DNA of 52,100 nt, taken from a candidate division GN15 bacterium. Lineage in GTDB: Bacteria; Zixibacteria; MSB-5A5; GN15; FEB-12. Numbering within the stretch: the stretch's first letter is position 1; each line of letters opens with the position of its first letter. The notes under the pieces are model-generated. The model saw nothing but the letters and a program-made list of their open reading frames with translations, ran no database searches and was not told the origin of the DNA. The position numbers and the translations under genes are program-made. Of the stretch, positions 29,010-49,905 are shown in pieces. Location: assembly GCA_014727815.1 (NCBI GenBank), contig WJMS01000066.1, positions 1 to 52,100 of the forward strand. Reading direction: 5' to 3'.

Positions 29010-29033
29010 AGACAGCAGCACTCACGAACGCTC

Positions 29034-32000
29034 ATGGCATCCCAGAACAACAGCAGCCTCACCGCCGGACTCTCCGCACTGTCGACCGGTTGCGCCTCCG
29101 CCACCGGCGGGCGTGCGCAATTCCAGCACCGACTGGTACCGGTCCAGATACTCGAGATGGAAGACGTCCTCTTCCACCTCAACAGCGCCGTCATGATGCC
29201 CGACCGCCCCGCCGGCAGGTCTTCCGAAGACGGCGCACAGCCCAGTGACGAACAATCGGACATGACCGGCCTCAACGTCCTCGCGCTCGTCTTCCGACAA
29301 TTCGAGTTCGACCCGACCCTCCGGATGATCGTCACCGGCCACACCGATACTTCCGGCGGCACGAGAATGAACTTCGAGTTATCCCAGCAGCGCGCCAAGG
29401 GGGTCCTGTATCTTCTCAACGGTGACATCCAGCAGTGGCAGCGCTTGTGTTTCCAGCGGCACAAGGTCGAAGATTACCAGCAGATCATCGAGTACTTCCA
29501 CAATCTTGCCGCACCGTGGAAACGCTCCAACTGGAACTGTGACCCGCAGGGACTCGACAACAAGTTCGGCAACAAGACGCGCAATGCGATCAACGGCTTC
29601 GCGCAGGGATACAATCGCGACTACGCCGATGCCTACTTCACGCCGCGCCTGCCCGACAATCTCGGTGACATTATCGCCAACCGGCCCAATCACACCTGGC
29701 CGGAATCCGACTGGCGCGCGATTTATCACCTCTACTCCCAGGTCATCTGCGACACCCTGCAGATCCTGCCGCTCGAACTCGACAACCAGCGCGAAAACGC
29801 GCTGCGCTATGTTGATGATGACAAACCGATTGTCGGCTGCGGCGAGTCGTTCCCGCTCGACGAGCGCGGGCGCGACAACTACCGCTCCCAGCAGAACCGG
29901 CGGGTCGAGATTCTCTTTTTCGCCGACCGCGATGCTCCACCCATGACCTGTCCGGCCGTGACCGATCGCACCCACACCGAGGCCGAGTGCCCGCTCTGGA
30001 GCCGCTACCATTTCGAACCGACCTACATCAGCCCCGGCGACCTGCACGCCGTCGCGTACCATCTCAAGTTTGAGTATTACAACAAGGTCCGCGACGAAGT
30101 CATGGCGATCCCGCCCGGCTTGAACATCGAAGCGCTCCGCCCCGATGACACCGCCATCAACAGCCGCGTCGTGCAGGGCAGCGACCTGTACACCGTCGTG
30201 GTGCAGTTCGCTACACAGGATGAAGCCGACAATCTCTCCGACAAAGTCCGCTTCCGCTTCGCGGCCCCCGACAGCTATATCTTCACCGCCAACAGTTCCG
30301 ACACCCCGAGGATTGTGACCAGGACGGCCGAAGAAATCGATGCCCTGTCCGATCTCGACCGCTGGCGCCACTACGACCTCCCGACCGAATGGGAGTCAAC
30401 CAACTGGTTCGCAACTAAGGACGACGACGTCGAGCCAATCTCCGAACTGCTCAAGCAGTCGACCAGCGCCTCCTCGCCGATCGTGTTCGATCTTGACAGC
30501 ATCGTGCTGGTGGACGGTACCGGCAGCCAGGCAATCCGGGACCGTTCCGCCTTCGTCAACGGCGCCAACCCGAACGGCGTGCCGAAACCGCTGTCGGAGC
30601 ATTCACGGGTACGCATCCTCTTTGTCGATCCTGAAGACCACCAGATGAAGATCTTCCCGGAAGTCGATCCGACCTCCGGTGACATCCCCGCCGACCACGA
30701 GGAGACACTGATACGATTCGAGCAGGACGAGAACAATGTCACCCGCAATTTCATTGTCGACACCCCGGAAAACGCCCGCGCGGTTGTCTTCTGCGGCGAC
30801 TTCTACGACGTCACCCGCAAACGCACCGTCCGCAACGGCTCATTCAATCCCGCCGCCGGACACGTTCTCGGCGCCCGTGCGGCCGTACTCAATGATGATG
30901 ATGTCCACGGCAGACAGACGATCACCTACCGTGACGGTATCGATACCGTCCACAACAGCGGCATCGGCGACTTCGACCTGCACTATCTCCACGACAGCAG
31001 CTGCGACGGCAGCCGGTTCTACTCCCACCTGATAGTCTACTGGTCGTGCTTCATCATCAAAGACCCCGACCCCACCGTGGGCGGCACCGGCGGCGAGCGT
31101 CCGGCCACCGATGCCGAGGTTGAGGAGTTCTTCAGTGTCGGCATGGTCAACTCGATGTTTCACTGGAACAAGAAGCTGTACGAGTTCGAGCGTACCGACG
31201 GCAACCGTGATCGCATTGTCAGGCCATTCTTCATGTTCGAAGGCAACGAAACGCTCGACTATACCCCGTCGTCGGCCTTCGATTTCGAGGACGACAATTT
31301 CAAAGCTATGTGGACCCGGGCCGATTTCAACGCCGCCCTGCGCAATACGCACGGCGGTCGGCCCAAGTCAGTCGCCGTCATCGTCGAAGAAGACAAAGGC
31401 AGCTGGGTGGTCTCGGCCCGGGCGGCCGACCGGCCCTTCAGCCTGCTGAGTTTACGGATCAAGACCCGCGAGGACGACCCCGGTCGCTTCTCCGGCTTCC
31501 CGTTCGACGAATTCGAAGACCCCGAGGGCTACGGCTGCCTGGTCATGGCGCATGAACTAGGTCACGCCACCGGGCAGGTCGATGATTACATGGACAAGGT
31601 GCCGAATGTGAGAACTAACGGTCGCCTGCCCAATTTCGGTCAGTTTGGCGTCACCTCAGGTGGCAATGACATCCGCGACAACAACTCCAACTTCCCCCAG
31701 CGCGTCCAGGGCTCCGAATCGTGGGATATCGACCACGACAAGCTCACCATGATGGACAAAAACGGCCCGATCCGCATGCGTCATGTCTGGCGCTTCGTAC
31801 ACTGGCTCAACGAGCAGAGCAAATCCGGCGGCAGCCTGCATCGCTACCTCGAGGGCGACCAGTTCCGCATGTACTACCCGCGCGCCGACATGCACTATCA
31901 TCGCCAGACCGCCGACCCGGTCGATCCCTGGCGATGGTCCAATGGCGGCCAGGTCACAATCAGCGGCAACAAGACCGCCAACCTCTATCTCTTCCAGGAG

Positions 32001-32534
32001 CTGGATGAAACCCGGCGGCTCGATCGCTCCGTCACCGACAACCCGACCGACTTCAGGGCGATCCTCAATGTCCGCTTCCTGCTCTCGATCGCGTTCGTCG
32101 ACAACGGCGCCCACACCTGGTCCGGCGCCCAGAAACGAGCCTGGGCCCGCATGATCTACAACTGGTTGACCAAATCGACCGGCCCCTACAAAGTCACCGG
32201 ACGGTTCCAGCTCACCGGTGGCGGCGGCGCGCTTGACCCGACTATCATCCGGGTGATCCCGGGCTTCGAGATCTACAGCCCCGGTTCACCGCCCGGTCAC
32301 GGTGCGTTCAACTATCGGGTCGAGGTCAAACAGTCGAGCAATGACCCGTTCAATCTGAACAACCAACGCCGCCTGCGGCTGGGCGATAATCACTCGGCGA
32401 GAAAAATAATCAACTACTTCTACGATAAACCGGAAGACGCTGCCGCCCTGTCGGCCGCCGACTTCAATTTCGTCGCCACCTGGTTCAATCAACCGTCAGT
32501 CAGCAGCGGCGGCTTCCGGGTGGAGGAGGTGTAG
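29034..32534 (+). CDS. large candidate T6SS effector: OmpA-like peptidoglycan-binding domain (with insertion) plus C-terminal HExxHxxGxxD zinc-metallopeptidase-like region
   Basis: OmpA/MotB-type motifs are present: IVTGHTDTSGGTRMNFELSQQRAKGVLYLL ... NRRVEILFF. VMAHELGHATGQVDDY begins at residue 837. There is no signal peptide or TM. The gene lies immediately downstream of PAAR and upstream of a lipoprotein. Confidence 0.6.
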   Translation: MASQNNSSLTAGLSALSTGCASATGGRAQFQHRLVPVQILEMEDVLFHLNSAVMMPDRPAGRSSEDGAQPSDEQSDMTGLNVLALVFRQFEFDPTLRMIVTGHTDTSGGTRMNFELSQQRAKGVLYLLNGDIQQWQRLCFQRHKVEDYQQIIEYFHNLAAPWKRSNWNCDPQGLDNKFGNKTRNAINGFAQGYNRDYADAYFTPRLPDNLGDIIANRPNHTWPESDWRAIYHLYSQVICDTLQILPLELDNQRENALRYVDDDKPIVGCGESFPLDERGRDNYRSQQNRRVEILFFADRDAPPMTCPAVTDRTHTEAECPLWSRYHFEPTYISPGDLHAVAYHLKFEYYNKVRDEVMAIPPGLNIEALRPDDTAINSRVVQGSDLYTVVVQFATQDEADNLSDKVRFRFAAPDSYIFTANSSDTPRIVTRTAEEIDALSDLDRWRHYDLPTEWESTNWFATKDDDVEPISELLKQSTSASSPIVFDLDSIVLVDGTGSQAIRDRSAFVNGANPNGVPKPLSEHSRVRILFVDPEDHQMKIFPEVDPTSGDIPADHEETLIRFEQDENNVTRNFIVDTPENARAVVFCGDFYDVTRKRTVRNGSFNPAAGHVLGARAAVLNDDDVHGRQTITYRDGIDTVHNSGIGDFDLHYLHDSSCDGSRFYSHLIVYWSCFIIKDPDPTVGGTGGERPATDAEVEEFFSVGMVNSMFHWNKKLYEFERTDGNRDRIVRPFFMFEGNETLDYTPSSAFDFEDDNFKAMWTRADFNAALRNTHGGRPKSVAVIVEEDKGSWVVSARAADRPFSLLSLRIKTREDDPGRFSGFPFDEFEDPEGYGCLVMAHELGHATGQVDDYMDKVPNVRTNGRLPNFGQFGVTSGGNDIRDNNSNFPQRVQGSESWDIDHDKLTMMDKNGPIRMRHVWRFVHWLNEQSKSGGSLHRYLEGDQFRMYYPRADMHYHRQTADPVDPWRWSNGGQVTISGNKTANLYLFQELDETRRLDRSVTDNPTDFRAILNVRFLLSIAFVDNGAHTWSGAQKRAWARMIYNWLTKSTGPYKVTGRFQLTGGGGALDPTIIRVIPGFEIYSPGSPPGHGAFNYRVEVKQSSNDPFNLNNQRRLRLGDNHSARKIINYFYDKPEDAAALSAADFNFVATWFNQPSVSSGGFRVEEV
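31551..31583 (+). other. HELGHATGQVD motif (HExxHxxGxxD, metzincin/snapalysin-style zinc site) within the effector candidate
   Basis: Read directly from the sequence: codons 840-850 of the 29034 ORF. A possible Met-turn (LTMMD) lies about 60 residues downstream. Confidence 0.55.
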
Positions 32535-32565
32535 GCTGAACGGTGTGGCGAATGGATATCGCAGT

Positions 32566-33780
32566 ATGCGTCAAGTGGTCGCGACCGGATTGCTCCTGGT
32601 CGCAGTCGCGGTCACCGGCTGCCGGGCCGATTCGGACCGGACTCAATCCCGACCGGAAGGAAACTCCATGGCTTCCTATGTAAGGCTCTTTGCGGATTAT
32701 CAGCAACGCTCGGTCCAATCGATCACCACCAACGCCGCCGGCAACGAGAGTTGGTTCCTGCCACTGGCCGACGCGGGCTTCGGCAATCCCCCCACGGTCC
32801 TGTTGGCCACACCCGACGGCCTCGTCGCCCAGTCGGTCGATCGCCTCGCGGGCGTCTCCTACGATGGTGATCTGCGCTGGCAACAACCGCACGGCGCCGG
32901 TCTCGATGCCGTCTACAGCGATGGCGCCACGTACTACCGGACCACCGAAGGCGACCTGTACGCGATCAACGCCGAGGGCAAAATCACCTTGTCCGATTTC
33001 TTCGTCCCCACCAGCCATGACCGGGGTTTCATCTACCTCGCCCTGCCCCGTCCCGACCGGCATATCCTCTTGCACACCTTCGCTCGCTCCGAGGAACCGA
33101 TGCCCGGCGATCCGCCCCAGCCCGACAGCTACGCCCTCCTGCTGATGGGCGACGAGCGTTATGACGATTGGGATTGGATGCATGAATTCGAAGGCGAGTG
33201 CCTGCCCGGTCTCATGACGACCGACCTCGGACGTGTCGTTATCCTCGATGGTAACGGCGGCGCGACGAGCTTCGATGCCACCACCGGCGAACAGACCGGC
33301 CGTTTCACCGTAACCGACCGTGAGTTCCTCCGCGCCAGCCTCGACAACGACAACAACATCATCGCCGCAATGCGCACGACCGACAACACCGGCCTGCTGG
33401 CTTCATATACCCTCGAAGGCAAACGCAACTGGGAACTGCTCCTCGACACCATCCCGGCCGGCGCCTTCACCCAGCCGCCGGCAATCGGACCCGACAACAG
33501 CGTTCTATTCATCGTCGGCAACGAACTGCTCCGTGTCGTCAACGGCGAGGTGCAGCACCGCTCCCCGGTTCTGAGTGCCAAACGGCAATATATAACGGTG
33601 CTGGAAGACAGCTCCGCCCTGCTGGTTGCTGCCAATGCCCTGATCCACCTCGATCCGGAAGGCGAACAGAAATTCGCGGTAACGCTCGACCCTGCCGAGA
33701 CAGTCACCGCCCCGGCCGTAGTCGACGGCAAAGGTCGGGTATGCATTGCCACCAGCCGCGGAATCCGCAGCTATGAGTGA
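32566..33780 (+). CDS. lipoprotein with PQQ/BamB-like beta-propeller repeats (candidate periplasmic immunity protein)
   Basis: MRQVVATGLLLVAVAVTGC lipobox. Recurrent DG.L.W / G...W-type blade motifs (DGDLRWQQ, GKRNWELLL). The start is taken at the ATG at 32566; the track start 32545 is a GTG. Confidence 0.6.
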   Translation: MRQVVATGLLLVAVAVTGCRADSDRTQSRPEGNSMASYVRLFADYQQRSVQSITTNAAGNESWFLPLADAGFGNPPTVLLATPDGLVAQSVDRLAGVSYDGDLRWQQPHGAGLDAVYSDGATYYRTTEGDLYAINAEGKITLSDFFVPTSHDRGFIYLALPRPDRHILLHTFARSEEPMPGDPPQPDSYALLLMGDERYDDWDWMHEFEGECLPGLMTTDLGRVVILDGNGGATSFDATTGEQTGRFTVTDREFLRASLDNDNNIIAAMRTTDNTGLLASYTLEGKRNWELLLDTIPAGAFTQPPAIGPDNSVLFIVGNELLRVVNGEVQHRSPVLSAKRQYITVLEDSSALLVAANALIHLDPEGEQKFAVTLDPAETVTAPAVVDGKGRVCIATSRGIRSYE

Positions 33781-33812
33781 GAGAACTATAATGAGAGTGT
33801 GTGAATACTGAT

Positions 33813-34226
33813 ATGGCCAACCGATTCAATTTCAAACTCCCGGACGGCTGGCAGGACGAAACGGTCCATCGCTTCACGGGCCCCGAAGACAGCGGTGTCG
33901 AGCATGCCCTCACCCTCGTCGTCGATCGCAGCGCCGGCAGGGCCAAGGTCGAAGACTACGCCCGGGAGCGTATCGATGCCTCCATGGAGGCCATGCAGCC
34001 GTCGGAAATCCTCAACGAGGGCCCCAAACAGCTGGGCTCCGGCGTTTCCGCCTACGAAGCGGTAATCAAGTGGGTACCGGTCGACGATGAGATCATCTTC
34101 CGCAAGCTGACCTTCGTGATCGACTCCGGCACCGGCCTGATGTTTGCGGCCAACTTCTCCAAAAAGACGATCAAGACGATCGGCCACGATGTCGACCGGA
34201 TTATCGACTCGATCGTAAGCGGCTGA
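33813..34226 (+). CDS. DUF1795/DcrB-like protein (Eag-type T6SS effector chaperone candidate)
   Basis: The N-terminus MANRFNFKLPDGWQDETVHRF matches the F.LP.GWQD.T..F pattern of EagR/EagT6-type proteins. Size is about 137 aa. An alternative GTG start lies at 33801. Confidence 0.55.
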   Translation: MANRFNFKLPDGWQDETVHRFTGPEDSGVEHALTLVVDRSAGRAKVEDYARERIDASMEAMQPSEILNEGPKQLGSGVSAYEAVIKWVPVDDEIIFRKLTFVIDSGTGLMFAANFSKKTIKTIGHDVDRIIDSIVSG

Positions 34227-34246
34227 TTCCGGAGCGTGACCCGACC

Positions 34247-35125
34247 ATGAAGTGGAGCAAAGGCACCGACAGCGAACACAAGATCAAGCTCGAATCAGCC
34301 ATCGTCTCCGTCACCTGGCTGACCGGCATGGCGATCGGCGGCCAACCGGCCAGATTCGAGGTGCGCACCGAGTTTGTCGGCGGCGGCGCGCCGGTCGAAA
34401 TCACCGCCCGCAAAGGCGACGGCAAAAAGCTGGCGAAGACAAAGGGCAAGATCAACGGCAACCGCTTCGCCGGCAGTATCGACATGCCCGAGGACCTCCA
34501 GCGCGGCGACAGGGTCTATTTCGAAGCCGAACTGAGCAAACACGGCCTCTCCGGGCGCTCCGAAACCATCCCCGCCGGCCCGCCGATCACCGTGTCCGAC
34601 ATGAAGTGGAGCGCCGCCGAAGCCCGTCGCGGCGACATCCTCACACTCTCCGCTCGCGTGCGGGGGCTCGATGACGGCGCCGAAGTGACGGTGGTGATTT
34701 ATGAGTACGACGCCGACGGCGTCCACGACCGGATCGCCGAGCTGCCCGCCACCATCTCCGGCGGCAAAGTCGAAATCGACTGGGAATACGAGTATCACGA
34801 GGACACCGACGAAATCCCGACCGAAGAAGAACTGGAGCGCTACGGCAGCAGCTACAACCCGCCGGAATACTTCTTCACCATCCGTGCCGGCAGCGCCGAA
34901 CTGGGCCGCGAGCAGGAATCCGGCCTGCTCACCTTCAAGGACTTCGTCGATATCGAACTGATGGACGCCGACGGCAACCCGGTCGCCGACGCAGAATACA
35001 AGCTCCTGCTGCCCGATGGCAGCGAGAAGACCGGCAACCTCGACAGCGACGGCAAGGCGCGAGTCGAGGATGTCCCGCCCGGCCGCTACCGGGTGACCTT
35101 CCCCGGCTTGACCGCGCCGCAGTGA
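34247..35125 (+). CDS. uncharacterised cytoplasmic beta-sandwich protein, paralogue of the PAAR C-terminal extension
   Basis: Residues 117-292 align by eye with PAAR residues 185-350. Matching stretches are W-S..EA..GD.LTLSA, KVE.DW, PE/TFFFT, D.IE.L.D.DGNP and a G.LD..G.A...DVPPGR.RV.F ending. There is an internal tandem duplication of the Ig-like unit. Confidence 0.6.
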   Translation: MKWSKGTDSEHKIKLESAIVSVTWLTGMAIGGQPARFEVRTEFVGGGAPVEITARKGDGKKLAKTKGKINGNRFAGSIDMPEDLQRGDRVYFEAELSKHGLSGRSETIPAGPPITVSDMKWSAAEARRGDILTLSARVRGLDDGAEVTVVIYEYDADGVHDRIAELPATISGGKVEIDWEYEYHEDTDEIPTEEELERYGSSYNPPEYFFTIRAGSAELGREQESGLLTFKDFVDIELMDADGNPVADAEYKLLLPDGSEKTGNLDSDGKARVEDVPPGRYRVTFPGLTAPQ

Positions 35126-35236: not shown

Positions 35237-35265
35237 TTGACAGAGATTGGTCACGTCCGTATCGT
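35237..35265 (+). promoter_or_regulatory. putative sigma70-like promoter ahead of clpV-tssBC
   Basis: TTGACA (35237-35242), 17 nt, then TATCGT (35260-35265). It is preceded by an imperfect 10-bp stem-loop (35182-35191 pairs with 35201-35210) after the 34247 gene. Confidence 0.35.
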
Positions 35266-35353: not shown

Positions 35354-36817
35354 ATGGATATAGCACAGTATTCCTCCGACGCCCGCGCCGTCATCAAAAA
35401 CGCCCGCGAAGTGGCCGCTGCCTTTCGCTACCCGGAAATCGAGGTCGAGCACCTGCTGGTCGCCACCGTGCGGCACGAAGGCTCAAAGGTCGAGTCGATC
35501 ATGAACCAGCTCGGCAAAAGCCGGGCTTTCATCGAGTCGACCGTCGAAGACTACCTCAAGGAGCAGGCTTCCGGACGGTCCTCCTCGCGCGAAAACCTCA
35601 TGATCTCCCCCAATGTCCAGGAGGTCCTCAACGCCGCCCTCGAGGAAAAGGGCAGACTGTACGATGCCCTGGTCGAGCCGGAGCACATCTTCATAGCGAT
35701 CTTCGACCCCAAGTCGAAGCTGTCCGGCTACCTGCGTGAGAAACTGGACATCACCCGCGAGCAGATCTACAACGCTATCGCCGACAGCCAGTCACTCGAG
35801 GAGATGGCCTCTACCCCCTCGAAAAAGACCGGAACCGGTGACGCTGAGGCGCCCAAAAAGGAAGTCTCCGGCGCGCTGCGCTACTGCACCGACCTCACCA
35901 ACCAGGCTGCCGCCGGCGAATTCGACCCGTGTATCGGGCGCGACGAGGAAGTCCGGCAGGTCATTCAAATCCTCATGCGCCGCCGCAAGAACAGCCCGGT
36001 TCTCGTCGGTGGCGCCGGCGTCGGCAAAACGGCGATCGTCGAAGGTTTCGCCCAGGCCGTGGTCGACAAACGGGTGCCGAAAGCAATCCAGGACGTCCGG
36101 GTGATGGAAGTGGACATGGGCTCGATGGTTGCCGGAGCCAAGTACAAGGGCGAATTCGAAGAACGCTTCAAGGGCCTGATCAGCGATGTCGTCAAGACCG
36201 CCGGCAAGACCATCCTCTTTATCGACGAAATCCACATGCTGGTCGGCGCCGGCAATGTCTCCGGCGGGATGGATGCCGCCAACCTCGTCAAGCCTGCCCT
36301 CGCTCGCGGCCAGCTCCGGCTGATCGGCGCCACCACCGAAGAAGAGTACACCAAGTACCTCGAAAAAGACAAGGCGATGGACCGTCGGTTCGAAAAGGTC
36401 AAAGTCGAGGAACCGAGCTTCGATGACGCCGTAAGAATCGTCAAGGGTATCATCGGCAAGTACGAGAAGCACCATTCGATCAGCTACACCGAGGAAGCGA
36501 TTGTCGGCTCCATCCGCTTCGCCAAACGCTACCTCAGCGAACGGAACCTGCCCGATATCGCTCTCGATATCATCGATGAAGCCGGCTCCGAGTTCAGCGT
36601 CAAAGAAGAATTCGCCAATGAGACGATCCCGGCCATCGAACAGCAGATTACCGATCTGGAAACGCTTATGAAAGAGTGCGACGGTAAAGATCCCGGGACC
36701 GATGACGAGGCGTTCGACAAGATGTACGAGGCCTATGATGAATTCACCCGCAGCCTGGAACGACTACACGACTTCTGGGGCCACCGCGTCGAGGCCTCGA
36801 AAGGGGGCGCCGCATGA
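35354..36817 (+). CDS. tssH: ClpV/TssH N-terminal polypeptide (Clp_N domain, AAA+ D1, first part of middle region)
   Basis: Clp N-domain repeats, Walker A GGAGVGKTAIVEG, Walker B ILFIDEIH and RFEKVKVEEPS are present. It ends in the coiled-coil/linker region. Its stop overlaps the next ATG (ATGA at 36814-36817). Confidence 0.85.
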   Translation: MDIAQYSSDARAVIKNAREVAAAFRYPEIEVEHLLVATVRHEGSKVESIMNQLGKSRAFIESTVEDYLKEQASGRSSSRENLMISPNVQEVLNAALEEKGRLYDALVEPEHIFIAIFDPKSKLSGYLREKLDITREQIYNAIADSQSLEEMASTPSKKTGTGDAEAPKKEVSGALRYCTDLTNQAAAGEFDPCIGRDEEVRQVIQILMRRRKNSPVLVGGAGVGKTAIVEGFAQAVVDKRVPKAIQDVRVMEVDMGSMVAGAKYKGEFEERFKGLISDVVKTAGKTILFIDEIHMLVGAGNVSGGMDAANLVKPALARGQLRLIGATTEEEYTKYLEKDKAMDRRFEKVKVEEPSFDDAVRIVKGIIGKYEKHHSISYTEEAIVGSIRFAKRYLSERNLPDIALDIIDEAGSEFSVKEEFANETIPAIEQQITDLETLMKECDGKDPGTDDEAFDKMYEAYDEFTRSLERLHDFWGHRVEASKGGAA

Positions 36818-37917
36818 GCACCGACCGACTTCCCCTGAGTGAACTCAAGAAGGAACTCGACAAGCAGAAAGACCGCTTCGCAGCGCTCAAACAGGTCGTC
36901 GAGGAACTGCCGGACAACCACTTCATCGAGGATGCCGATGTCGCCGCTGTGATCGCCCGCCGCACCGGCATCCCGGTCGCCAAGATGATGACTGCCGAAA
37001 AGGACCGCCTGGTCAACATGGAAGCCCACCTGTCGGAGCGAATCGTGGGCCAGGAGAAAGCGATCAAAGGTGTCGCCGACGCCATCCGCAAGGCCCGCGC
37101 CGGTCTCAAACCGGCCAACCGACCGGTCGGCTCCTTCCTCTTTCTCGGCCCCACCGGCACCGGCAAGACCTACCTTCCGAAACTGCTGGCCGAGTTCCTG
37201 TTCGACGACAAAAACGCCATGGTCCGGCTCGACATGTCGGAGTTCATGGAATCGCACTCGGTCGCCAAAATGATCGGCGCTCCCCCCGGCTATGTCGGTT
37301 ATGAGGCCGGCGGCGTCCTCACCGAGGCGGTCAGGCGCAAACCATTCTCGATTATTCTCTTCGATGAGGTCGAAAAGGCCCACCCGGAGATTTTCAATAT
37401 CCTGCTGCAGCTGCTCGACGACGGCCGGCTGACCGATGGCCAGAACCGTACGGTCGACTTCTCCAACACCGTGGTCATCCTGACCTCCAACTACGCCGCC
37501 GACATCATCCTCGAGGCCGACCGCGAGAAGCGCGACGTCGACATGGACGAAATCCGCAGCTTCCTGTTCAGCAAGTTTCGGCCCGAATTTCTCAACCGGC
37601 TCAACGACATCATCGTCTACCACACCTTCACGCCCGAGCAGGTCGAGAAGATCGTCGGGCTGGAGTTCAAGCAGCTCGGCGAACTGCTCGAGGACCAGAA
37701 CATCTCGGCGGGACTGTCCGATGCCGCCCGGAAGAAGCTTGCCGCCGACGGCTACACGTTCGAGCTCGGCGCGCGGCCCCTGCAGCGGATTATCGAAAAA
37801 GAGATTATCAATAAACTGTCGGTGCGAATTATCACCGGCGATATCACGCCCGGGACCGATGTGACGGTTGATGTATCGGGCGATGAGTACGTATTTCAAA
37901 CAAAGCAACGTTCGTAA
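36814..37917 (+). CDS. tssH: ClpV/TssH C-terminal polypeptide (rest of middle region, AAA+ D2)
   Basis: Carries VIARRTGIPV...RIVGQEKAI, Walker A LGPTGTGKTYL, Walker B IILFDEVEKAH and sensor region GARPLQR. Confidence 0.85.
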   Translation: MSTDRLPLSELKKELDKQKDRFAALKQVVEELPDNHFIEDADVAAVIARRTGIPVAKMMTAEKDRLVNMEAHLSERIVGQEKAIKGVADAIRKARAGLKPANRPVGSFLFLGPTGTGKTYLPKLLAEFLFDDKNAMVRLDMSEFMESHSVAKMIGAPPGYVGYEAGGVLTEAVRRKPFSIILFDEVEKAHPEIFNILLQLLDDGRLTDGQNRTVDFSNTVVILTSNYAADIILEADREKRDVDMDEIRSFLFSKFRPEFLNRLNDIIVYHTFTPEQVEKIVGLEFKQLGELLEDQNISAGLSDAARKKLAADGYTFELGARPLQRIIEKEIINKLSVRIITGDITPGTDVTVDVSGDEYVFQTKQRS

Positions 37918-37947: not shown

Positions 37948-38388
37948 ATGGCGAAATTCATGCTCGGTGCGGTCGAACGGGTCAAAAAGGATGATTCCAT
38001 CCCCGTCGAACTGCTGCCGTCCAACAAGATCCTGTACGCGGCGCGTTTGAACAGCGATGAGGAAACCGACCCCACGCCGACCAAATGCACCAACCTGAAA
38101 GAAGTCTTCGAGAAGTTCCAGCCCTCATTCAATGTCGACATGGAGACCGAAGAGGGTGAGCCGATAAACGCCGATTTTGAAGTTCGCGCGATGAAGGAGT
38201 TCTCATCGAAGGAACTGATCGAGAAAAACGACTACCTCCAGGAAACCTACTACGCCAAGGAAATGATGGCCGACCTGGAGAAACAGCTCAAGAAGAACAA
38301 GGCGCTGCAGAAGATCCTCCAGGATAAGGAGAAAAAGGAAGCGCTCTTGAAAGTCGCACAGTACTACGTTGACCTTCTCAGCGAGTAA
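37948..38388 (+). CDS. tssB: contractile sheath small subunit TssB (VipA-like)
   Basis: A 146-aa acidic helical protein with the F.KF.P.F ... F....EF.SKELIEKNDYL pattern of TssB. GGAGGA RBS. It sits immediately upstream of tssC. Confidence 0.7.
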   Translation: MAKFMLGAVERVKKDDSIPVELLPSNKILYAARLNSDEETDPTPTKCTNLKEVFEKFQPSFNVDMETEEGEPINADFEVRAMKEFSSKELIEKNDYLQETYYAKEMMADLEKQLKKNKALQKILQDKEKKEALLKVAQYYVDLLSE

Positions 38389-38405: not shown

Positions 38406-39833
38406 ATGGCTGACGAAGAAAAAAAAGAAATGGAACAGCAGGCCGAACAGGCCGCACCCGCCCCCGCCGAGAAGACGGTTGAAAGGATATCCGACGACGA
38501 GTTTGCGTCCATTCTCGGCGACCAGTTCGGCGACTTCAGCAAGCTCGCCTCGCTGCTGCCGTCGTTTAAGACGGCCGATGGCGACCTGGTCCGCGGGGTC
38601 GAATGGCTCGACCCGAAAAAGGACTTCCAGCGCAAGGAATTCCTGACCAAGAAAGACTTCGCCAAACAGCGCAAGCTGCTGGCGCAGCGGCTGCAGATCT
38701 GGATCGACGCCCTCGCCTCGGGCGATGATCCCGATTCGATCCGCAAGTCACTCAACGAAAAGGCGACCGCCAAGGAAGCCAATCTCGAAAAGAACATGAA
38801 GAAGGTCCACCGGGCCAGCCGCGAACTGGAGATCACCTACCGCGGCATCGCCCAGTTCTTCGCCAACGCCCAGCAGGAACCGGATGAAAAAGTCAATGCC
38901 TGGTTCTCCAATGTCGGTGTCGAGGAGCTCAGCGACCCCGACGACCGGGAGAAGTTCGATGCGATCTGCAAGGAAATCGCCGACCTCTTCCGCGAGTGGG
39001 ACATCACCGAGGCCTTCTCCATGTGCGTTATCCCGGGCTGGCTCGGCAGCGTCGAAAACATCGACACCTTCGCCCGCACCCTCGGCATGCCCAACAAGGT
39101 CCAGATCATGACCGACCTGCCGAACTTCGAGAAGTTCGAAGAGGTCATGGACATGCTCGACGACCCCAGCTACGCCAACCTGGCCGGCATCGATGCTTTC
39201 AAGCAGTACATGTCGGTCTTCGCCAACTACGTCCTGGCCCGCAACGCCAACCAGTTCGAGGATGACGATATGTGGGTGCCGCCGTCGGCGGCAATCGCCG
39301 GCAAGATGTACCAGGGTGACCTCACCCAGGGCATGCAGCAGCCGATGGCCGGGTTTAAGTACGGCAAGCTCAACGATGCCAAGTATCTGCGGTTCAAGGC
39401 CAACCAGCCCGACGCCAGCAAGATCAACGAAAAAGGCGTCAACCCGATTGTCGACTTCAAGGGCACCCCGGTCGCCATGGGCTCGTCGACCCTGTACACC
39501 AAGGAGACCTTCAACAACTACTCCATTCGGCGAACCTATGACTACGTCTACAAGACGCTGCGCAACTACTTGAACAAGCAAACCTTCACGGTTATCGATC
39601 AGAAATTCGTCGACACCATGCGCCGGGATATCGACACCTTCATGAAGGCGATCACCGGCGCCGACAACATCCTCCAGGATTACAAGATCGATATCTTCGC
39701 CGACGAAGAGATGCGTAAACGGCAGGAGGTCGATGTCAAGGTGAGCCTGAATCCCAAGTATCCGGCGAAGTCGTTCAACATCGAATTCGTCGCCTGGGGC
39801 GAAGGCGAACAGACCAACGTCAAGGACAAGTAG
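38406..39833 (+). CDS. tssC: contractile sheath large subunit TssC (VipB-like)
   Basis: A 475-aa protein placed directly after tssB and before hcp. The C-terminal half resembles the sheath handshake/gp18-like core. GAGGTG RBS. Confidence 0.8.
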   Translation: MADEEKKEMEQQAEQAAPAPAEKTVERISDDEFASILGDQFGDFSKLASLLPSFKTADGDLVRGVEWLDPKKDFQRKEFLTKKDFAKQRKLLAQRLQIWIDALASGDDPDSIRKSLNEKATAKEANLEKNMKKVHRASRELEITYRGIAQFFANAQQEPDEKVNAWFSNVGVEELSDPDDREKFDAICKEIADLFREWDITEAFSMCVIPGWLGSVENIDTFARTLGMPNKVQIMTDLPNFEKFEEVMDMLDDPSYANLAGIDAFKQYMSVFANYVLARNANQFEDDDMWVPPSAAIAGKMYQGDLTQGMQQPMAGFKYGKLNDAKYLRFKANQPDASKINEKGVNPIVDFKGTPVAMGSSTLYTKETFNNYSIRRTYDYVYKTLRNYLNKQTFTVIDQKFVDTMRRDIDTFMKAITGADNILQDYKIDIFADEEMRKRQEVDVKVSLNPKYPAKSFNIEFVAWGEGEQTNVKDK

Positions 39834-39871: not shown

Positions 39872-39907
39872 GCGGAAAAGGTGATCGCCCCATGTCACCT
39901 TTTCCGC
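39872..39907. other. perfect 13-bp stem-loop after tssC
   Basis: GCGGAAAAGGTGA (39872-39884) pairs with TCACCTTTTCCGC (39895-39907), with a 10-nt loop. There is no U-tract on the plus strand; a T-rich tail appears only on the minus strand. Confidence 0.5.
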
Positions 39908-40012
39908 GTTCCTGAATGAAGCCGTTGGGGAAACGGCAGCAAGCACGGAAAACCTGGAATCTAAAACGCTAACCGAATAGCGACCGTTTCTAACACATGA
40001 AGGAGCATCCGC

Positions 40013-40417
40013 ATGGCACGCAGACCGACTGTAGAAATTGATGGCGTTCCGTACAAAAACGTCTACTCCGTCAAGTACTCGCTGTATACGGCGAAAGACG
40101 AAACCGGCCGGCCGTCCGACCGCGCCCACGCCGGCGTAATCGAGGTCGTCCGTGAATCCGACGAAACCACCGATATCGCTCGCTGGGCAATGGACTCCTC
40201 CAAGCCGAACTGGAAAGCCGGCAAGGTCACCTTCAAAAGTCCCGATGACTCAACCATGAAGGAACTGACCTGGGAAGAGGGCTTCATCACCCACTATGAA
40301 GAACTGATCCCGCACATCAAGCACACGCCGGACGAGCAGATTTACGAGGTGTTCCACATCTCCTGCCGCAAGCTCGTGATCGGTGACGCCGAAATCGACA
40401 ACCGGTGGGAAGAATAA
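40013..40417 (+). CDS. hcp: Hcp tube protein (TssD), Bacteroidota-like type
   Basis: A 134-aa protein. The pattern IDG..Y....V.YSLY...DETGRP....H.G.I.V..ES......W......W.G.V.F...D....K.L.WEE.F...Y.E ... ISC..L.IG...IDNRW is typical of T6SSiii-type Hcp. AAGGAG RBS. Confidence 0.75.
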   Translation: MARRPTVEIDGVPYKNVYSVKYSLYTAKDETGRPSDRAHAGVIEVVRESDETTDIARWAMDSSKPNWKAGKVTFKSPDDSTMKELTWEEGFITHYEELIPHIKHTPDEQIYEVFHISCRKLVIGDAEIDNRWEE

Positions 40418-40427
40418 CCAGGTTGTT

Positions 40428-40461
40428 GCGACCGGGCCGCGCCAAAACCCGGCCCGGTCGC
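40428..40461 (+). other. perfect 12-bp GC-rich stem-loop after hcp
   Basis: GCGACCGGGCCG (40428-40439) pairs with CGGCCCGGTCGC (40450-40461), with a 10-nt loop. It starts 11 nt after the hcp stop and has no U-tract. Confidence 0.5.
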
Positions 40462-40489
40462 CACTTCCACAGGTAATGGACGGACGACC

Positions 40490-42214
40490 ATGACAGACGG
40501 TGGCAACATCATCAAAATGCCGACTGAGGTGAAGGTCTCTGTCGGCGGCCACGAGATTAGCCTGGAAATCTCCAGCATCGAACTCAACCAGTATATCGAC
40601 CGGCACCACGAACTGATCGTCACCGTGATCCTCTCTCAGCAGATGACGGACAACCAGGAAATGGCCGATATCAAGCGCTATCTCGATATGCTCGGACAGA
40701 CCGTATCCCTTTCAGCTTCGTCCGAGAAAGAGCGCATGACGAACGATGAAGACGAGCTGCAGTTTGTGGGAATTGTCACCAATGTCGAAGCAGTCAACGA
40801 AATCGACGGCACCAACGTCGTTCGCATTCACGGCAGCAGCCCGACTGTCCGTATGGACGGCGGCCCGCGCATCCGCACCTACCAGCAGAATTCACCCGCT
40901 GACATAGTCGAGAGTATCGTGAGCTCGGCCGCCGTGACCCGGGGAAAACTCGAGAGATTCGGCAGTAAACGGGAATATACGTTGCAGTATAACCAGAGCG
41001 ACTACGAATTCCTGATGCGCCTGGCCACCGGTCACGGCATGTTCGCGTACTACGACGGCAAGGAGTTCCATGTCGGCAAACCGACCTCCAAAGACGCCGT
41101 GGAACTCAACTGGCGGCAGTCGCTCGCCGGATTCTCGGTCGACCTCGGAACGGCGCCCGGAGAGTACGCCGTTGGCACCTACGACTACGCCCAGAACAAG
41201 ACCTTCCTGGCCAGTTCGACCAAAAGCCGTACCGGCTCGGCCGTCTCCGGATTCCTTGCCAATTCTCCCAAAGCGTCGAAAAACATCTTCGGTGACGAGC
41301 CCGGCTACATGGTTCACGTCACGCACAGCGCCAGCCAGAGCGAGGCCACCGATGCCGCCGTGAAAGCCAAGTCCCGCGCGCTCGGCCGCATGATCGTCGG
41401 CAAGGGAACCTCCTATGTCCCCAGTGTGCGGGTCGGACGGTGCGTGCAGGTCAAAGGTATGGTCATGCTCGACGGCATGTATCTGGTTAGTTCGGTCAAA
41501 CACCGCTACGAAAGCGGCGGCTACTACAACACCTTCGAATGCACCCCCCTCGACCTCGCTTTCCCGCAGTTCCGCGGCCACCGGGACAAGATAACGGACC
41601 TCCATGTCGCCGTCGTGCAGGATGTCCAGGATCCGGAGAAACTCGGACGGGTCAAGATCTACTTTCCCTGGCTGGATATTGACAGCGTCTGGGCGCGCAT
41701 GGCCGTGCCGCACGCGGGTCAGTCCTGGGGCTGGGTCTGCCTGCCCGAAATCGATGACGAAGTTCTGGTCGGATTCGACCGCGGCGACCCGGAACAGCCC
41801 GTTATCCTCGGCGCCCTGTACAATTCCAAAGCCAAACCGCCGTCCGAAGCCACTGCCTCCCCACCCGAGGTTAAGGTCCTGCAGACCAAAGGCGGTAACA
41901 AGATCCTGCTCAGCGACAAACAGGGCTCGGAAGAGATCATTCTCACCACCAGGGATGGCCAGAACAATATTGTATTGAGTATGTCCGGCCCCGGTATTAC
42001 CATTGAGAGCAAAGGTGACCTGACCTTCAAGGGCAAAGGCGTCAGTATCGAGGGCGATACGATCAAGCTCAAGAGCCAGAAAGATACCACCGTCGAGGCC
42101 GGCGGAAATCTCAAGGCCGAAGGGAAAATGAACCTGGAGACCAAGGCCGGCATGAACTACCAGGCTGAAGGGATGATGGTCAAGATCAAGGGACAGATGA
42201 TCAATCTCAATTAG
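40490..42214 (+). CDS. vgrG: VgrG spike protein (TssI; gp27/gp5-like)
   Basis: The gp5 OB-fold signature GRVKIYFPWLD...WARMAVPHAGQSWGWVCLPEIDDEVLVGFDRGDPEQPVILGALYN is followed by a short beta-helix repeat region. No C-terminal effector domain. Confidence 0.85.
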   Translation: MTDGGNIIKMPTEVKVSVGGHEISLEISSIELNQYIDRHHELIVTVILSQQMTDNQEMADIKRYLDMLGQTVSLSASSEKERMTNDEDELQFVGIVTNVEAVNEIDGTNVVRIHGSSPTVRMDGGPRIRTYQQNSPADIVESIVSSAAVTRGKLERFGSKREYTLQYNQSDYEFLMRLATGHGMFAYYDGKEFHVGKPTSKDAVELNWRQSLAGFSVDLGTAPGEYAVGTYDYAQNKTFLASSTKSRTGSAVSGFLANSPKASKNIFGDEPGYMVHVTHSASQSEATDAAVKAKSRALGRMIVGKGTSYVPSVRVGRCVQVKGMVMLDGMYLVSSVKHRYESGGYYNTFECTPLDLAFPQFRGHRDKITDLHVAVVQDVQDPEKLGRVKIYFPWLDIDSVWARMAVPHAGQSWGWVCLPEIDDEVLVGFDRGDPEQPVILGALYNSKAKPPSEATASPPEVKVLQTKGGNKILLSDKQGSEEIILTTRDGQNNIVLSMSGPGITIESKGDLTFKGKGVSIEGDTIKLKSQKDTTVEAGGNLKAEGKMNLETKAGMNYQAEGMMVKIKGQMINLN

Positions 42215-42600
42215 TGAGCGATATGGATAGAATCGCGCTGCCGGTGACATTACGCGATGGTTACTTGAACCGGGCCGAGTCGGTCGAAGAATCGATCTTC
42301 CATTCGGTCGGCCTCCTGCTCTGTACCCGTCCGGGCCAGATGGAGTTTCTGCCCGAGTACGGCTGCGATGTCTGGAAAATGGAATTCTCCGACCTCAACG
42401 TGGCCAACAAGGGCGAGGTACGCGCCAGTCTCCGCAACGCTATCGACAAGTTCGAGCCCCGCCTCTTCAACGTCTCCGTCTCGTTCACACCGCATACCGA
42501 TTCCGCCTCACACGTCCTCGGCATGTCGGTCAAGGTAACCGGCAACTACCGCGATGCCGGCGAGGAAAAGAAATTCGAAGCCACCTATGCGTTAGGATGA
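42214..42600 (+). CDS. tssE: baseplate wedge protein TssE (GPW/gp25 family)
   Basis: Carries the gp25-like core SIFHSVGLLLCTRPGQMEFLPEYGCDVW. The GTG at 42214 overlaps the vgrG stop. An alternative ATG lies at 42223. Confidence 0.75.
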   Translation: MSDMDRIALPVTLRDGYLNRAESVEESIFHSVGLLLCTRPGQMEFLPEYGCDVWKMEFSDLNVANKGEVRASLRNAIDKFEPRLFNVSVSFTPHTDSASHVLGMSVKVTGNYRDAGEEKKFEATYALG

Positions 42601-42601
42601 T

Positions 42602-44260
42602 ATGAGCGATTCCCGAGCCCGCACTCCGCAGGATATCTTCACCGCCATGCACCGGGAACTCCGGTCATTCAACCGCGACATCCCGGAATCACTCGACCGG
42701 CTGGACCCCATTCTCAAGCTGCTCATGCAGCTCTACGCCAGCCAGCTCTCGCACATCGACAAACGGGTTGATCACCTCTGGGATGTCGCCACGGCCGCCC
42801 TGATCAAGTCGCTCTACCCCGAGGCCAAGCGCTGGCCGGTGCCGGCCTACACCGTCATGCACTGCGCCCCGCTCGACCCGGTGGTCGAGACCGATCGCCA
42901 GGTCCGCTTCTTCTTTCAGGAGACGCGCGAGGGCGGCCAGATGCACTTCTTCTCGCCCCAGCGTACCGAAAAGCTGATCAATGCCACCGTAAAGCGCGTC
43001 CTGCTTCGCTCCGGCGAACAGATTTACGACCTCACTCCGGGGAAGGCCGACGCGATGAATTCCGGCGGCATATCCTGGGCCGAACGAAACAGCATTTATG
43101 TGGCCGTTGAGTATGGCGGCAACCCGGCCGACATGACCGGCTCACATCTCTTTCTCGACGGCGATATCGCCGCCCTGCGTCAACTGCGCTGGGGCTACTG
43201 GTACCCCTCGAGTGCGGCCGGTGGCTTCTACGACGACTCCCGTTTCTGCCCGGCGCTGAGATTCGACCTGGAGTCACTGGTTTCCCCCGATGATAGCCCG
43301 TCGACCAACTGGGGCGGCCTGCGCGACAGCAGTCACTTGTTCTCTCGCCTCGAGAACCACTTCGTCACCCTGCCCGAGGCGTTCTGCGCGACCTGGCAGA
43401 TGGGTCCCCCGGAGCCCGACCTGGCCCGCCTGCTCGGCATCAATGGCATCATTATCGATGACGGCGCCGAACAGCACTACTGGCTTCGCATCGACCTCCC
43501 CCCATCCGGCGACAAGAGCACGCTCGCCCGACCGATCGACCTGCGCTTCGGCTGCGTCGTGGTCACCAACCGCAACGAACTGACCCTGTTCAAGCACACC
43601 GGTGACAACCGGCTGATAGAAATCGAACTCCCCGATGAGCTCGACAGTATTCTCGGAATTACGTCGGTTACCGACTCCACCGGCAAGACCTACCAGCCGC
43701 GCCACCAGGTACAAAGCGAACCCGTGCAAACTTCGTACGCCCTCGAAGAACGCGACGGCAAACTGGTCGTATGGTTCGACTTTACATCGAGCATGGAAGC
43801 GCCCCCCGAATCACTGACCGTGACCTACGCGGTGACATCCGGCACCGCCGCCAACGGGATCGGTCGCGGCGAGATCAGCGACCTCTATGAAAACCATCCG
43901 GGTATCGACAGCGCCGAAAACGTCCTGCCCACTACCGGGGCCGTCCCGGCCAAAACCGAACAGGAGATAATCGACGAGGTCACCCTGCGCCTGCGCGCCC
44001 GCGACCGGGCGCTCAGTTTCCCCGAGCTGGCCCGTTGGGCCCAGACTTTCGACAAGCGTATCAAGTCAGCCACCTGCGAGAACGGCATTCAACGGACTCC
44101 GACCGGCATCCGCCGCTGCATCGACATATCCGTTGCGATTACCAAAGAAGACTTCTGCTCCGACGATGAGATAAACCTGCTGGCCGATCGGCTCGAACGT
44201 TTCCTGAAATCCCGAGCCCCGGTCAACACCCAGTTTCAGGTGAAGGCGCAATCGGCATGA
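42602..44260 (+). CDS. tssF: baseplate subunit TssF (gp6-like)
   Basis: A 552-aa protein. The N-terminal helical segment followed by LYPEAKRWPVPAYTVMHCAP resembles the TssF LYP...P(S/A) motif. It lies between tssE and tssG. Confidence 0.7.
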   Translation: MSDSRARTPQDIFTAMHRELRSFNRDIPESLDRLDPILKLLMQLYASQLSHIDKRVDHLWDVATAALIKSLYPEAKRWPVPAYTVMHCAPLDPVVETDRQVRFFFQETREGGQMHFFSPQRTEKLINATVKRVLLRSGEQIYDLTPGKADAMNSGGISWAERNSIYVAVEYGGNPADMTGSHLFLDGDIAALRQLRWGYWYPSSAAGGFYDDSRFCPALRFDLESLVSPDDSPSTNWGGLRDSSHLFSRLENHFVTLPEAFCATWQMGPPEPDLARLLGINGIIIDDGAEQHYWLRIDLPPSGDKSTLARPIDLRFGCVVVTNRNELTLFKHTGDNRLIEIELPDELDSILGITSVTDSTGKTYQPRHQVQSEPVQTSYALEERDGKLVVWFDFTSSMEAPPESLTVTYAVTSGTAANGIGRGEISDLYENHPGIDSAENVLPTTGAVPAKTEQEIIDEVTLRLRARDRALSFPELARWAQTFDKRIKSATCENGIQRTPTGIRRCIDISVAITKEDFCSDDEINLLADRLERFLKSRAPVNTQFQVKAQSA

Positions 44261-45171
44261 CAACTCGTCCGGAACGCCTCATGCCCGACTTTTGCAGCCG
44301 GCGCCATCCCTTCCATGCCGCCACGGCGATCGTCACCCTGATGAAGCTCGATGTCGACCTGTCTCGCATTCGCCTGCTGGCGGTCGGCACACACCAGAAC
44401 TATCGCGGCGAAGTTCATGAACAGGAGCCCGACCCCGGCGCCACGCTGCGCCCGGACACCACCGTCACCCTCCACGTCGGCTGTGAAAGCCCGGTCGACA
44501 TGGTACCCTTCCAGTTCTTCTATGGCGTCGGCGGCCGGCGTGACCGCTCCGGTGACTGGGAAGGCAATGCCAGGTCACTCATGGCGCCCTTCGATGCCGC
44601 CGTTCAACGCTACCGGGCCCTGACCGACTACCACGCCATGCGCTACCGGCTGGGGGTGATCGATGAAGACCACTTGCGCCGCTACTTCGAACTGTTCGCC
44701 TTTGAATCGACCGAAACAACCGCCTCCCTGTCGGATCGACTCCTGTGGGCAGCCCTGCTGCCGTCGTTCCATCACTGGGCCGGCAATCCCGATCTGGTCG
44801 AGAAGGCGGTCACCTTTTTTCTCGGCTACCCGTGCCGCATCATTGAAAACGTACCGGCGCGATACAACATTCCCGATCACCTCTGGTTCCGACTTGGCCA
44901 ATCCAACACCCGCCTCGGCGGAGAGACCGCCCTGGGCCGCTCCTTCGTCGAGGCTGATTCATGCTATAAAGTGATACTGAGCGATGTCGCCCCCGAGGAT
45001 GTCCCGTTGTACCTCGAGGGTGGTCGCGGCCGTCGACGCCTGGAAGCCCTGCTCGACATCTGCATGCCCGGCAACCTCGCGCATCAAATCGAAATCCGCG
45101 CGCGTCGAACCGGCTTGCGCCCCGGCGACAAGCAACGCGCCGCATATCTGGGCTATACCAGCCACGTGTGA
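44257..45171 (+). CDS. tssG: baseplate subunit TssG (gp7-like), tentative
   Basis: ATGA overlap with tssF, 304 aa, and a C-terminal RLGQSNTRLGGETALGRSF resembling the LG-rich TssG end. The call rests mainly on synteny. Confidence 0.55.
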   Translation: MTTRPERLMPDFCSRRHPFHAATAIVTLMKLDVDLSRIRLLAVGTHQNYRGEVHEQEPDPGATLRPDTTVTLHVGCESPVDMVPFQFFYGVGGRRDRSGDWEGNARSLMAPFDAAVQRYRALTDYHAMRYRLGVIDEDHLRRYFELFAFESTETTASLSDRLLWAALLPSFHHWAGNPDLVEKAVTFFLGYPCRIIENVPARYNIPDHLWFRLGQSNTRLGGETALGRSFVEADSCYKVILSDVAPEDVPLYLEGGRGRRRLEALLDICMPGNLAHQIEIRARRTGLRPGDKQRAAYLGYTSHV

Positions 45172-45246
45172 AAGAGACGATGGTTATATTGTTGACATGT
45201 ACCGTGAGGGACGATACCTTGATTCCGACTTTCTCGAGGCAAGATC

Positions 45247-46692: not shown

Positions 46693-46710
46693 CACAACCG
46701 GACGGCTACC

Positions 46711-47637: not shown

Positions 47638-47664
47638 CGACATGAACAAAGGCAGCAAGTAACC

Positions 47665-49875: not shown

Positions 49876-49905
49876 TAACGCACGCAGAGCATAAGGATGT
49901 CAGCT

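Follow-up and report, generated by a model that had tools for sequence, protein, structure and literature searches.

ClpV, the motor that recycles type VI secretion system (T6SS) sheaths, and ClpB are ordinarily single polypeptides whose AAA+ modules, D1 and D2, stack in one hexamer. On a contig from a candidate division GN15 bacterium (GenBank assembly GCA_014727815.1, contig WJMS01000066.1, positions 1 to 52,100 of the forward strand; the whole 52,100-nucleotide [nt] stretch is called the window here), a clpV-like gene beside the sheath genes tssB and tssC reads as two open reading frames (ORFs) that overlap at a stop/start junction. Is this an error in, or the relic of, an ordinary single-chain gene, or does the bacterium make its ClpV as two chains? 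An earlier note, made from the letters of the sequence, had leaned to a functional split over a 1-nt frameshift caused by mutation or assembly error. Comparison with orthologous loci supports that leaning, and we consider it likely that the pair is an evolutionarily maintained gene fission that gives a translationally coupled, two-chain ClpV protomer. The two ORFs, taken from the ORF listing, and the motifs read in their translations are as follows.

35354-36817, plus strand: ORF1, the D1 chain, 487 amino acids (aa)
36008-36031, plus strand: D1 Walker A motif GGAGVGKT, ORF1 aa 219-226
36212-36235, plus strand: D1 Walker B motif ILFIDEIH, ORF1 aa 287-294
36814-37917, plus strand: ORF2, the D2 chain, 367 aa
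37147-37170, plus strand: D2 Walker A motif GPTGTGKT, ORF2 aa 112-119
37351-37374, plus strand: D2 Walker B motif IILFDEVE, ORF2 aa 180-187
37768-37788, plus strand: D2 sensor-2 motif GARPLQR, ORF2 aa 319-325

The ORF lengths and the five motifs agree with the description in the earlier note, and its assignment of Clp_N and D1 to ORF1 and of D2 to ORF2 was borne out by Pfam matches above the gathering score: Clp_N, AAA, and AAA_lid_9 in ORF1, and AAA_2 (1.3e-61) and ClpB_D2-small (4.9e-20) in ORF2. ORF1 is laid out as Clp_N, the D1 AAA+ module, most of the D1 lid, helices 1 and 2 of the middle domain (M-domain), and a 9-residue tail; ORF2 consists of M-domain helix 3, the last D1-lid helix, the D2 AAA+ module, and the D2-small domain. 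The D1 pore loop (AGAKYKGEFEERF), the D1 Arg-finger region (ALARGQLRLIGATT), and the D2 pore loop GAPPGYVGY together with FRPEFLNR were also read in the translations, and the catalytic motifs of both halves are all intact. The pair has the domain set of a class I (two-ring) Hsp100, namely, Clp_N, the D1 AAA+ module, D2 AAA_2 with ClpB_D2-small, Walker A and B motifs, and pore loops, but the two AAA+ modules, which in this class share one polypeptide, are encoded by two ORFs with a stop/start overlap.

An ordinary single-chain clpV might look like two ORFs through an artefact of sequencing or assembly, or because a 1-nt frameshift has recently inactivated it (a pseudogene). Adding one nucleotide before the ORF2 ATG does give a single frame of 854 aa, as long as the natural fused ortholog at a related locus (L020), and the two window proteins concatenated are also exactly 854 aa. 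Against an artefact or pseudogene stands the conservation of the split. The best 120 homolog clusters of each half, many of them from Zixibacteria metagenome-assembled genomes (MAGs), are all half-sized: 479-520 aa with 66-83% identity for ORF1 and 362-371 aa with 73-88% identity for ORF2. In a scan of one genome per GTDB species, ORF2 had 71-79% identity to 27 syntenic loci, whose labels are Zixiibacteriota, Ignavibacteriales/Ignavibacteriaceae, FCB group, and Latescibacterota; the other loci in the scan are housekeeping ClpB/ClpC (46-55% identity), most of which keep the two halves in a single frame. In each syntenic locus that retains upstream sequence, the D1 half directly precedes the D2 half, and among the 26 of 27 loci in which the junction is visible, 23 are split at the same alignment position and 3 are fused (L020, L023, and L025). 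The split loci have four junction geometries: a 4-nt ATGA/GTGA overlap in 20 of the 23 and, in the other three, an 8-nt overlap (ATGAGTAA), a 1-nt overlap (TAATG), and a 2-nt gap (TAGccATG). All three stop codons, TGA, TAA, and TAG, occur at the end of ORF1 among them. The closest relative (P0122, 88% identity) could be read on 24 contigs and has the same 4-nt overlap and the same neighbours at the four places shown, which come from four different sequencing runs. The ratio of nonsynonymous to synonymous substitution rates (dN/dS) was 0.02-0.05 in each half for all pairs with an estimable dS, one of which (L006 and L009) had unsaturated dS (0.37-0.40), and both halves are thus under strong purifying selection.

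The earlier note had also named what would speak against a split, namely, closely related genomes with an uninterrupted clpV one base longer or shorter at the junction. Fused orthologs do exist, in the three loci named above, but they belong to separate lineages with 59-71% identity and linkers of their own and do not amount to the same gene with one base added or removed. Likewise, the single-base insertion that the note proposed to try in silico restores one ClpB-like frame, but its M-domain is about 24 residues short of the normal ClpB length. Two irregular sequences were seen in passing. In a long-read MAG (L027:5974-8976), the D2 half is cut short at 324 aa and the matches to TssB and TssC are fragmentary, suggesting indel errors in that assembly; and the 50%-identity cluster representative of the D2-half family (P0246) has a C-terminus that is out of frame.

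The junction in the window carries two signals.

36801-36807, plus strand: Shine-Dalgarno (SD)-like sequence AAGGGGG, which lies within the 3' end of ORF1 and leaves 6 nt to the ATG of ORF2
36814-36817, plus strand: ATGA stop/start overlap (gcATGAgc), with the ORF2 ATG at 36814-36816 and the ORF1 TGA at 36815-36817

The overlap of ATG and TGA is the one that the earlier note had seen. AAGGGGG codes for part of Lys-Gly-Gly in the ORF1 tail, and its duplex with the anti-SD sequence has a free energy (ΔG) of -10.7 kcal/mol. A purine-rich motif complementary to the anti-SD sequence stands 3-10 nt before the ORF2 start in 25 of the 25 split junctions examined, with duplex ΔG values of -6.6 to -14.7 kcal/mol (mean, -9.6 kcal/mol). 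Values of -6.6 kcal/mol or lower were thus found in all 25 junctions but in only 16% of control windows (random 22-nt windows taken from the same genes), and values of -10 kcal/mol or lower in 64% of junctions versus 3% of control windows. An ATGA overlap is commonplace by itself; what is above chance is the overlap conserved with an SD sequence in all 25 junctions, plus low dN/dS in both halves. The Gly/Ala-rich C-terminal tail of the D1 chain is explained by the SD sequence encoded there. ORF1 and ORF2 have the form of an overlapping gene pair, with a stop/start overlap and the SD sequence of the downstream cistron inside the upstream coding sequence. Because the homologs are conserved as halves, the SD sequence recurs at the junctions well over background, and dN/dS is low, the comparisons indicate that the split in the window is genuine, neither an assembly error nor a decaying pseudogene; we give an artefact or recent frameshift practically no chance.

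A genuine split in the DNA might still yield one full-length chain, by programmed frameshifting, stop-codon recoding, or protein trans-splicing. ORF2 does lie in the -1 frame relative to ORF1, its frame is open for 72 nt upstream of its ATG in the window, and SD-like sequences can stimulate frameshifting elsewhere (dnaX, prfB). However, no X_XXY_YYZ slippery heptamer was found in the last 90 nt of ORF1 in the 22 split loci scanned, and both the frame relation and the overlap length differ among the four geometries given above; a programmed -1 frameshift was rejected on these two grounds. Stop-codon readthrough or recoding was rejected as well: the ORF1 frame beyond its TGA is stopped by a second TGA six codons further along without ever joining the D2 frame, and other loci end ORF1 with TAA or TAG. 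A split intein was rejected since Pfam detected no intein domain in either half and the tails are only 7-9 residues long. The SD sequence, for its part, stands at a spacing typical of initiation. We therefore regard a single full-length product as very improbable. No terminator-like site was found on the plus strand between or within ORF1 and ORF2, and a single promoter-like match lies upstream of ORF1 (35237-35265), which is no more than chance predicts. Since there is no slippery site, no intein, and no such terminator, the frame relation varies, and a second TGA follows the first, two polypeptides made from one transcript are by far the most economical reading.

The cut falls inside the M-domain. 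In alignments, ORF1 aa 14-476 corresponds to Escherichia coli ClpB 14-463, ORF2 aa 14 to E. coli ClpB 508, and ORF2 aa 38 to Thermus thermophilus ClpB 521. A joint alignment with five ClpB outgroups showed that the whole T6SS clade, whether split or fused, is without about 24 residues exactly at the junction, and we take these residues to be motif 2 of the ClpB M-domain. The fused orthologs have a short variable linker at this position and otherwise align end to end with the split pairs (59-71% identity), with no segments gained or lost. An AlphaFold model was made of the natural fused ortholog from L020 (P0391; 854 aa, 83-sequence alignment, mean predicted local distance difference test score [pLDDT] of 83.3). 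It has helices at 402-443, 451-477, 494-516, and 524-535 and a coil of 16 residues and reduced confidence at 478-493, in the middle of which, according to the alignment, the split forms break. Transferring the model positions through the alignment (with an offset of +1 for M-domain helices 1 and 2) places the following elements on the window.

36560-36787, plus strand: M-domain helices 1 and 2, ORF1 aa 403-478, ending in a conserved WGHR
36835-36909, plus strand: M-domain helix 3, ORF2 aa 8-32, LSELKKELDKQKDRFAALKQVVEEL, equivalent to model helix 494-516
36931-36978, plus strand: conserved DADVAAVIARRTGIPV helix, ORF2 aa 40-55, equivalent to model helix 524-535

The DADVAAVIARRTGIPV helix is presumably the one that closes the D1 small domain before the D1-D2 linker in ClpB/ClpA. 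According to the earlier note, ORF1 closes with about 85 coiled-coil-like residues and ORF2 opens with about 35 similar ones; the transferred helices fit both, with ORF1 aa 403-478 and the 9-residue tail on one side and ORF2 aa 8-32 on the other. Its placing of the split within the middle region also holds, with the correction that this M-domain is shorter than that of ClpB and that the break lies exactly at the deletion of about 24 residues.

How the split arose can be judged from the distribution of the fused forms. There are 32 fused clusters of 830-854 aa that share 63-100% identity with the L020 protein; their labels are Krumholzibacteriota, Latescibacteria, and, for a single one, Zixiibacteriota. 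Relatives in the next tier share about 50% identity with that protein, and ClpB shares 41-43%. The fused orthologs are accordingly real lineages. Among 50%-identity representatives, where the clade collapses into P0246, the nearest full-length representative is only 57% identical. In a neighbor-joining tree of the concatenated halves, the T6SS clade was monophyletic in 200 of 200 bootstraps and the split forms in 0 of 200; the fused L020 protein paired with the split L010 protein, inside the split clade, in 200 of 200. Trees of each half, every one built from 120 split and 41 fused sequences with 13 from ClpB as outgroup, gave 3-5 changes between the split and fused states by parsimony, with a range of 2-6 across bootstraps. 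All of these are simple distance trees, to be taken with caution. The fused state is presumably ancestral, since the more distant relatives are all single-chain, and the later changes could be either repeated fission at the same loop or re-fusion. No convincing relic of a start or stop codon that might polarise the changes was found in the linkers of the fused genes. Outside the clade, four Hsp100 proteins have the size of a D2 chain only (P0372, P0318, P0258, and P0390; 359-375 aa, 47-51% identity) and may be independent natural fissions or truncated gene calls. P0372 is ClpC-like and starts with Met, with a short coiled-coil segment ahead of an IASWTKIPV motif; P0318 starts with Met inside the ClpB motif-2 region.

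Among known systems, ClpB/Hsp104 structures (PDB 4D2Q, 1QVR, and 6OAX) are the best structural homologs of the halves (E values of 5e-92 and 1.5e-112), with domains in the same order and the M-domain likewise set into the D1 lid; ClpB, however, is a single chain with a four-helix M-domain, whereas the window clade is missing the motif-2 residues and is cut there. ClpC (PDB 3J3S and 6EM8) is likewise a two-ring Hsp100 with a shortened M-domain, and its alignments span both halves, but it consists of one chain and works with the ClpP protease. ClpC has about 11 residues between the segments that match ORF1 aa 473 and ORF2 aa 34, compared with about 47 in the window pair, which in turn has about 24 fewer than ClpB; the M-domain of the pair is thus intermediate between those of ClpC and ClpB. 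An engineered split of T. thermophilus ClpB was reportedly cut after the M-domain, at about residue 519/520. That artificial cut aligns to ORF2 aa 38, whereas the natural one lies about 37 residues earlier, inside the M-domain, and leaves one M-domain helix and the last D1-lid helix on the D2 chain. As far as its title tells (cited in PMC4239642), the work of Beinker et al. (2005, J Biol Chem 280:37965), in which D1 with the M-domain (NBD1-M) and D2 (NBD2) were separate chains as they are here, found that covalent linkage is not required for the chaperone activity of ClpB. The same laboratory reports that NBD1-M expressed separately is a fully active ATPase (PMC4239642). By this engineered precedent, function of the natural split pair is plausible, and the fission of a gene at a loop is in itself an evolutionary event of a familiar kind.

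Both chains might also be made and have taken on separate roles, with the D2 chain acting as a single-ring unfoldase, as Skd3 and ClpX do, and the D1 chain as a sheath-binding adaptor or regulator. Single-ring D2 relatives exist (human CLPB/Skd3, a PDB match, aligns to the D2 region only), the separately expressed ClpB NBD1-M is by itself an active, oligomeric ATPase (PMC4239642), and repeated switching between split and fused states would be compatible with such a division of labour. On the other hand, the genes are adjacent and coupled in every split locus, the fused orthologs differ from the split pairs only at the linker, and the constraint on the two halves is equally strong. In addition, ORF2 keeps M-domain helix 3 and the D1-lid helix, which is sensible only if these are docked to the D1 chain. 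Subfunctionalised halves therefore seem quite unlikely to us.

In the two-chain protomer that we favour, ORF1 and ORF2 would be co-transcribed on one mRNA, and ORF2 would be translated from its own SD sequence, embedded in the last ORF1 codons; the SD sequence and the ATGA overlap would favour synthesis of the two chains in a coupled manner and in roughly equal amounts. The cut lies in the middle of a surface coil that replaces motif 2 of the ClpB M-domain in this clade, leaving the N-domain, D1, and M-domain helices 1 and 2 on the D1 chain and M-domain helix 3, the last D1-lid helix, and D2 on the D2 chain. Because the lid/M-domain module would be built from both chains, they should dock, perhaps cotranslationally, into one noncovalent protomer, and six of these protomers would assemble into the familiar two-tier ring, a hexamer that takes contracted TssB/TssC sheaths apart. 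Coupled translation, the heterodimer with its 6+6 assembly, and sheath-recycling activity are what we infer; what the sequences show is the split and its conservation, the SD sequence, the purifying selection on the two halves, the place of the break in a loop, and the T6SS context.

Several points weigh against this proposal. The model gives secondary structure and confidence for a fused ortholog only, and the production of both chains, their association, and a double ring made of them are predictions. The cut-off of the TssH equivalog TIGR03345 (884.95 bits) is reached neither by ORF1 (398 bits) and ORF2 (313 bits) nor by the fused L020 ortholog (707 bits), and the role as a sheath unfoldase therefore rests on gene context. 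All of the sequences come from metagenome assemblies of uncultured organisms. Finally, since the clade still contains fused orthologs and has changed state several times, the split may be nearly neutral and not mechanistically meaningful. The opposite possibility, that the fission is adaptive and that separate D1 and D2 chains held by an M-domain/lid clasp allow regulated assembly of the double ring, is conceivable but unlikely. If it were so, the active double ring might be assembled only on contracted sheaths, for example, and the tiers could exchange or occur in unequal amounts; this would be a mode of Hsp100 control without counterpart in single-chain ClpV or ClpB, and the repeated switches at one loop would reflect selection in different directions in different lineages.

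The label ClpV (TssH) in the earlier note is right as to context, the gene pair lying inside a T6SS cluster with tssB and tssC, but goes further than the family models allow. In function, ClpV/TssH is a hexamer whose N-domain binds the contracted sheath, at the N-terminal helix of TssC or by way of TagJ, and which disassembles it. Like ClpV/TssH, the pair has Clp_N, D1, the M-domain, D2, and D2-small, adjoins tssB/tssC, and keeps its ATPase and pore-loop motifs; unlike it, the protein is in two polypeptides, with scores that stay under the TssH cut-off and a sequence no farther from ClpB than from ClpV/TssH. Nor does it have the usual marks of a ClpB disaggregase: the fused ortholog scores 870 bits against the cut-off of 1232 bits of the ClpB equivalog TIGR03346, which the halves do not reach either, and the full four-helix M-domain with motif 2 is wanting. 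The name ClpV is used here by genomic context only, and the pair is best described, as far as its sequence goes, as a T6SS-associated, ClpB-like Hsp100 with a truncated M-domain in two-chain form.

If correct, the two-chain protomer would be a widespread natural case of Hsp100 AAA+ tiers without covalent joining, which to our knowledge are otherwise known only from engineered ClpB. No description of a split ClpV/TssH or of a naturally split two-ring Hsp100 was found in the literature searched, with most subscription journals outside the reach of that search. The split and fused orthologs would offer a ready system in which to examine how the D1 and D2 rings communicate and what part the M-domain plays as a clasp, and the loop at the cut would mark a tolerated split site in Hsp100 that is useful for protein engineering. 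The halves are currently annotated as "AAA family ATPase" or "ATP-dependent Clp protease ATP-binding subunit", and because neither passes the cut-off of the TssH model, T6SS detection pipelines likely score these Zixibacteria and Ignavibacteria systems as lacking ClpV.

The complete T6SS locus around the split gene (window positions 27957-35125 and 39900-50436) and the genes next to the pair comprise the following.

27957-29009: PAAR protein, upstream of the ClpV pair
29034-32534: 1166-aa protein with a short OmpA-like segment, upstream
32545-33780: BamB/PQQ-like protein, upstream
33801-34226: DcrB-like protein, upstream
34247-35125: 292-aa protein (p292), upstream
37948-38388, plus strand: tssB, sheath small subunit (PF05591), 30 nt downstream of ORF2
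38406-39833, plus strand: tssC, sheath large subunit (PF17541, 3.8e-72), the expected ClpV substrate
40013-40417: Hcp candidate, 134 aa, downstream of tssC
40490-42214: VgrG, downstream
42214-42600: TssE, downstream, with a match below the curated cut-off
46711-47637: 308-aa protein with no family assigned
47665-49875: 736-aa protein with a weak Double-GTPase-2 match

TssF, TssG, and TssK are also encoded downstream, the TssF and TssK matches being below curated cut-offs, and no TssJ, TssL, or TssM was detected in the T6SS locus of the window. The homolog of the Hcp candidate in L081 matches TssD PF17642. We take TssC PF17541 and TssD PF17642 to be families of the Bacteroidota-type T6SS, and from its gene content the system in the window looks Bacteroidota-type (T6SSiii-like), not proteobacterial. 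The order DcrB-like protein, p292, ClpV, TssB, TssC, VgrG, and TssF is common to the 27 loci wherever the contig extends, and the T6SS synteny is also kept in the loci L081-L084.

In most of the 27 loci (L001-L027), the p292 homolog is separated from the D1 half by a stretch of about 2.7 kb, which in L001 contains a 798-aa ORF without a Pfam match (L001:1901-4297); the window and its closest relative L081 lack this stretch, and a spacer of only about 230-260 nt is found instead. The PAAR protein (27957-29009) and the 292-aa protein (34247-35125) match the same region of related loci by tblastn (31-39% and 41-60% identity, respectively, for complete hits), and each has a weak CarboxypepD_reg/prealbumin-like match at its C-terminus; the C-terminal domains of the two are probably homologous. 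The T6SS locus is directly preceded, on its own strand, by genes for aromatic amino acid biosynthesis (window 24751-27826).

24751-25977, plus strand: trpB (TIGR00263, 619 bits)
26810-27826, plus strand: DAHP synthase (NF006421, 500 bits)

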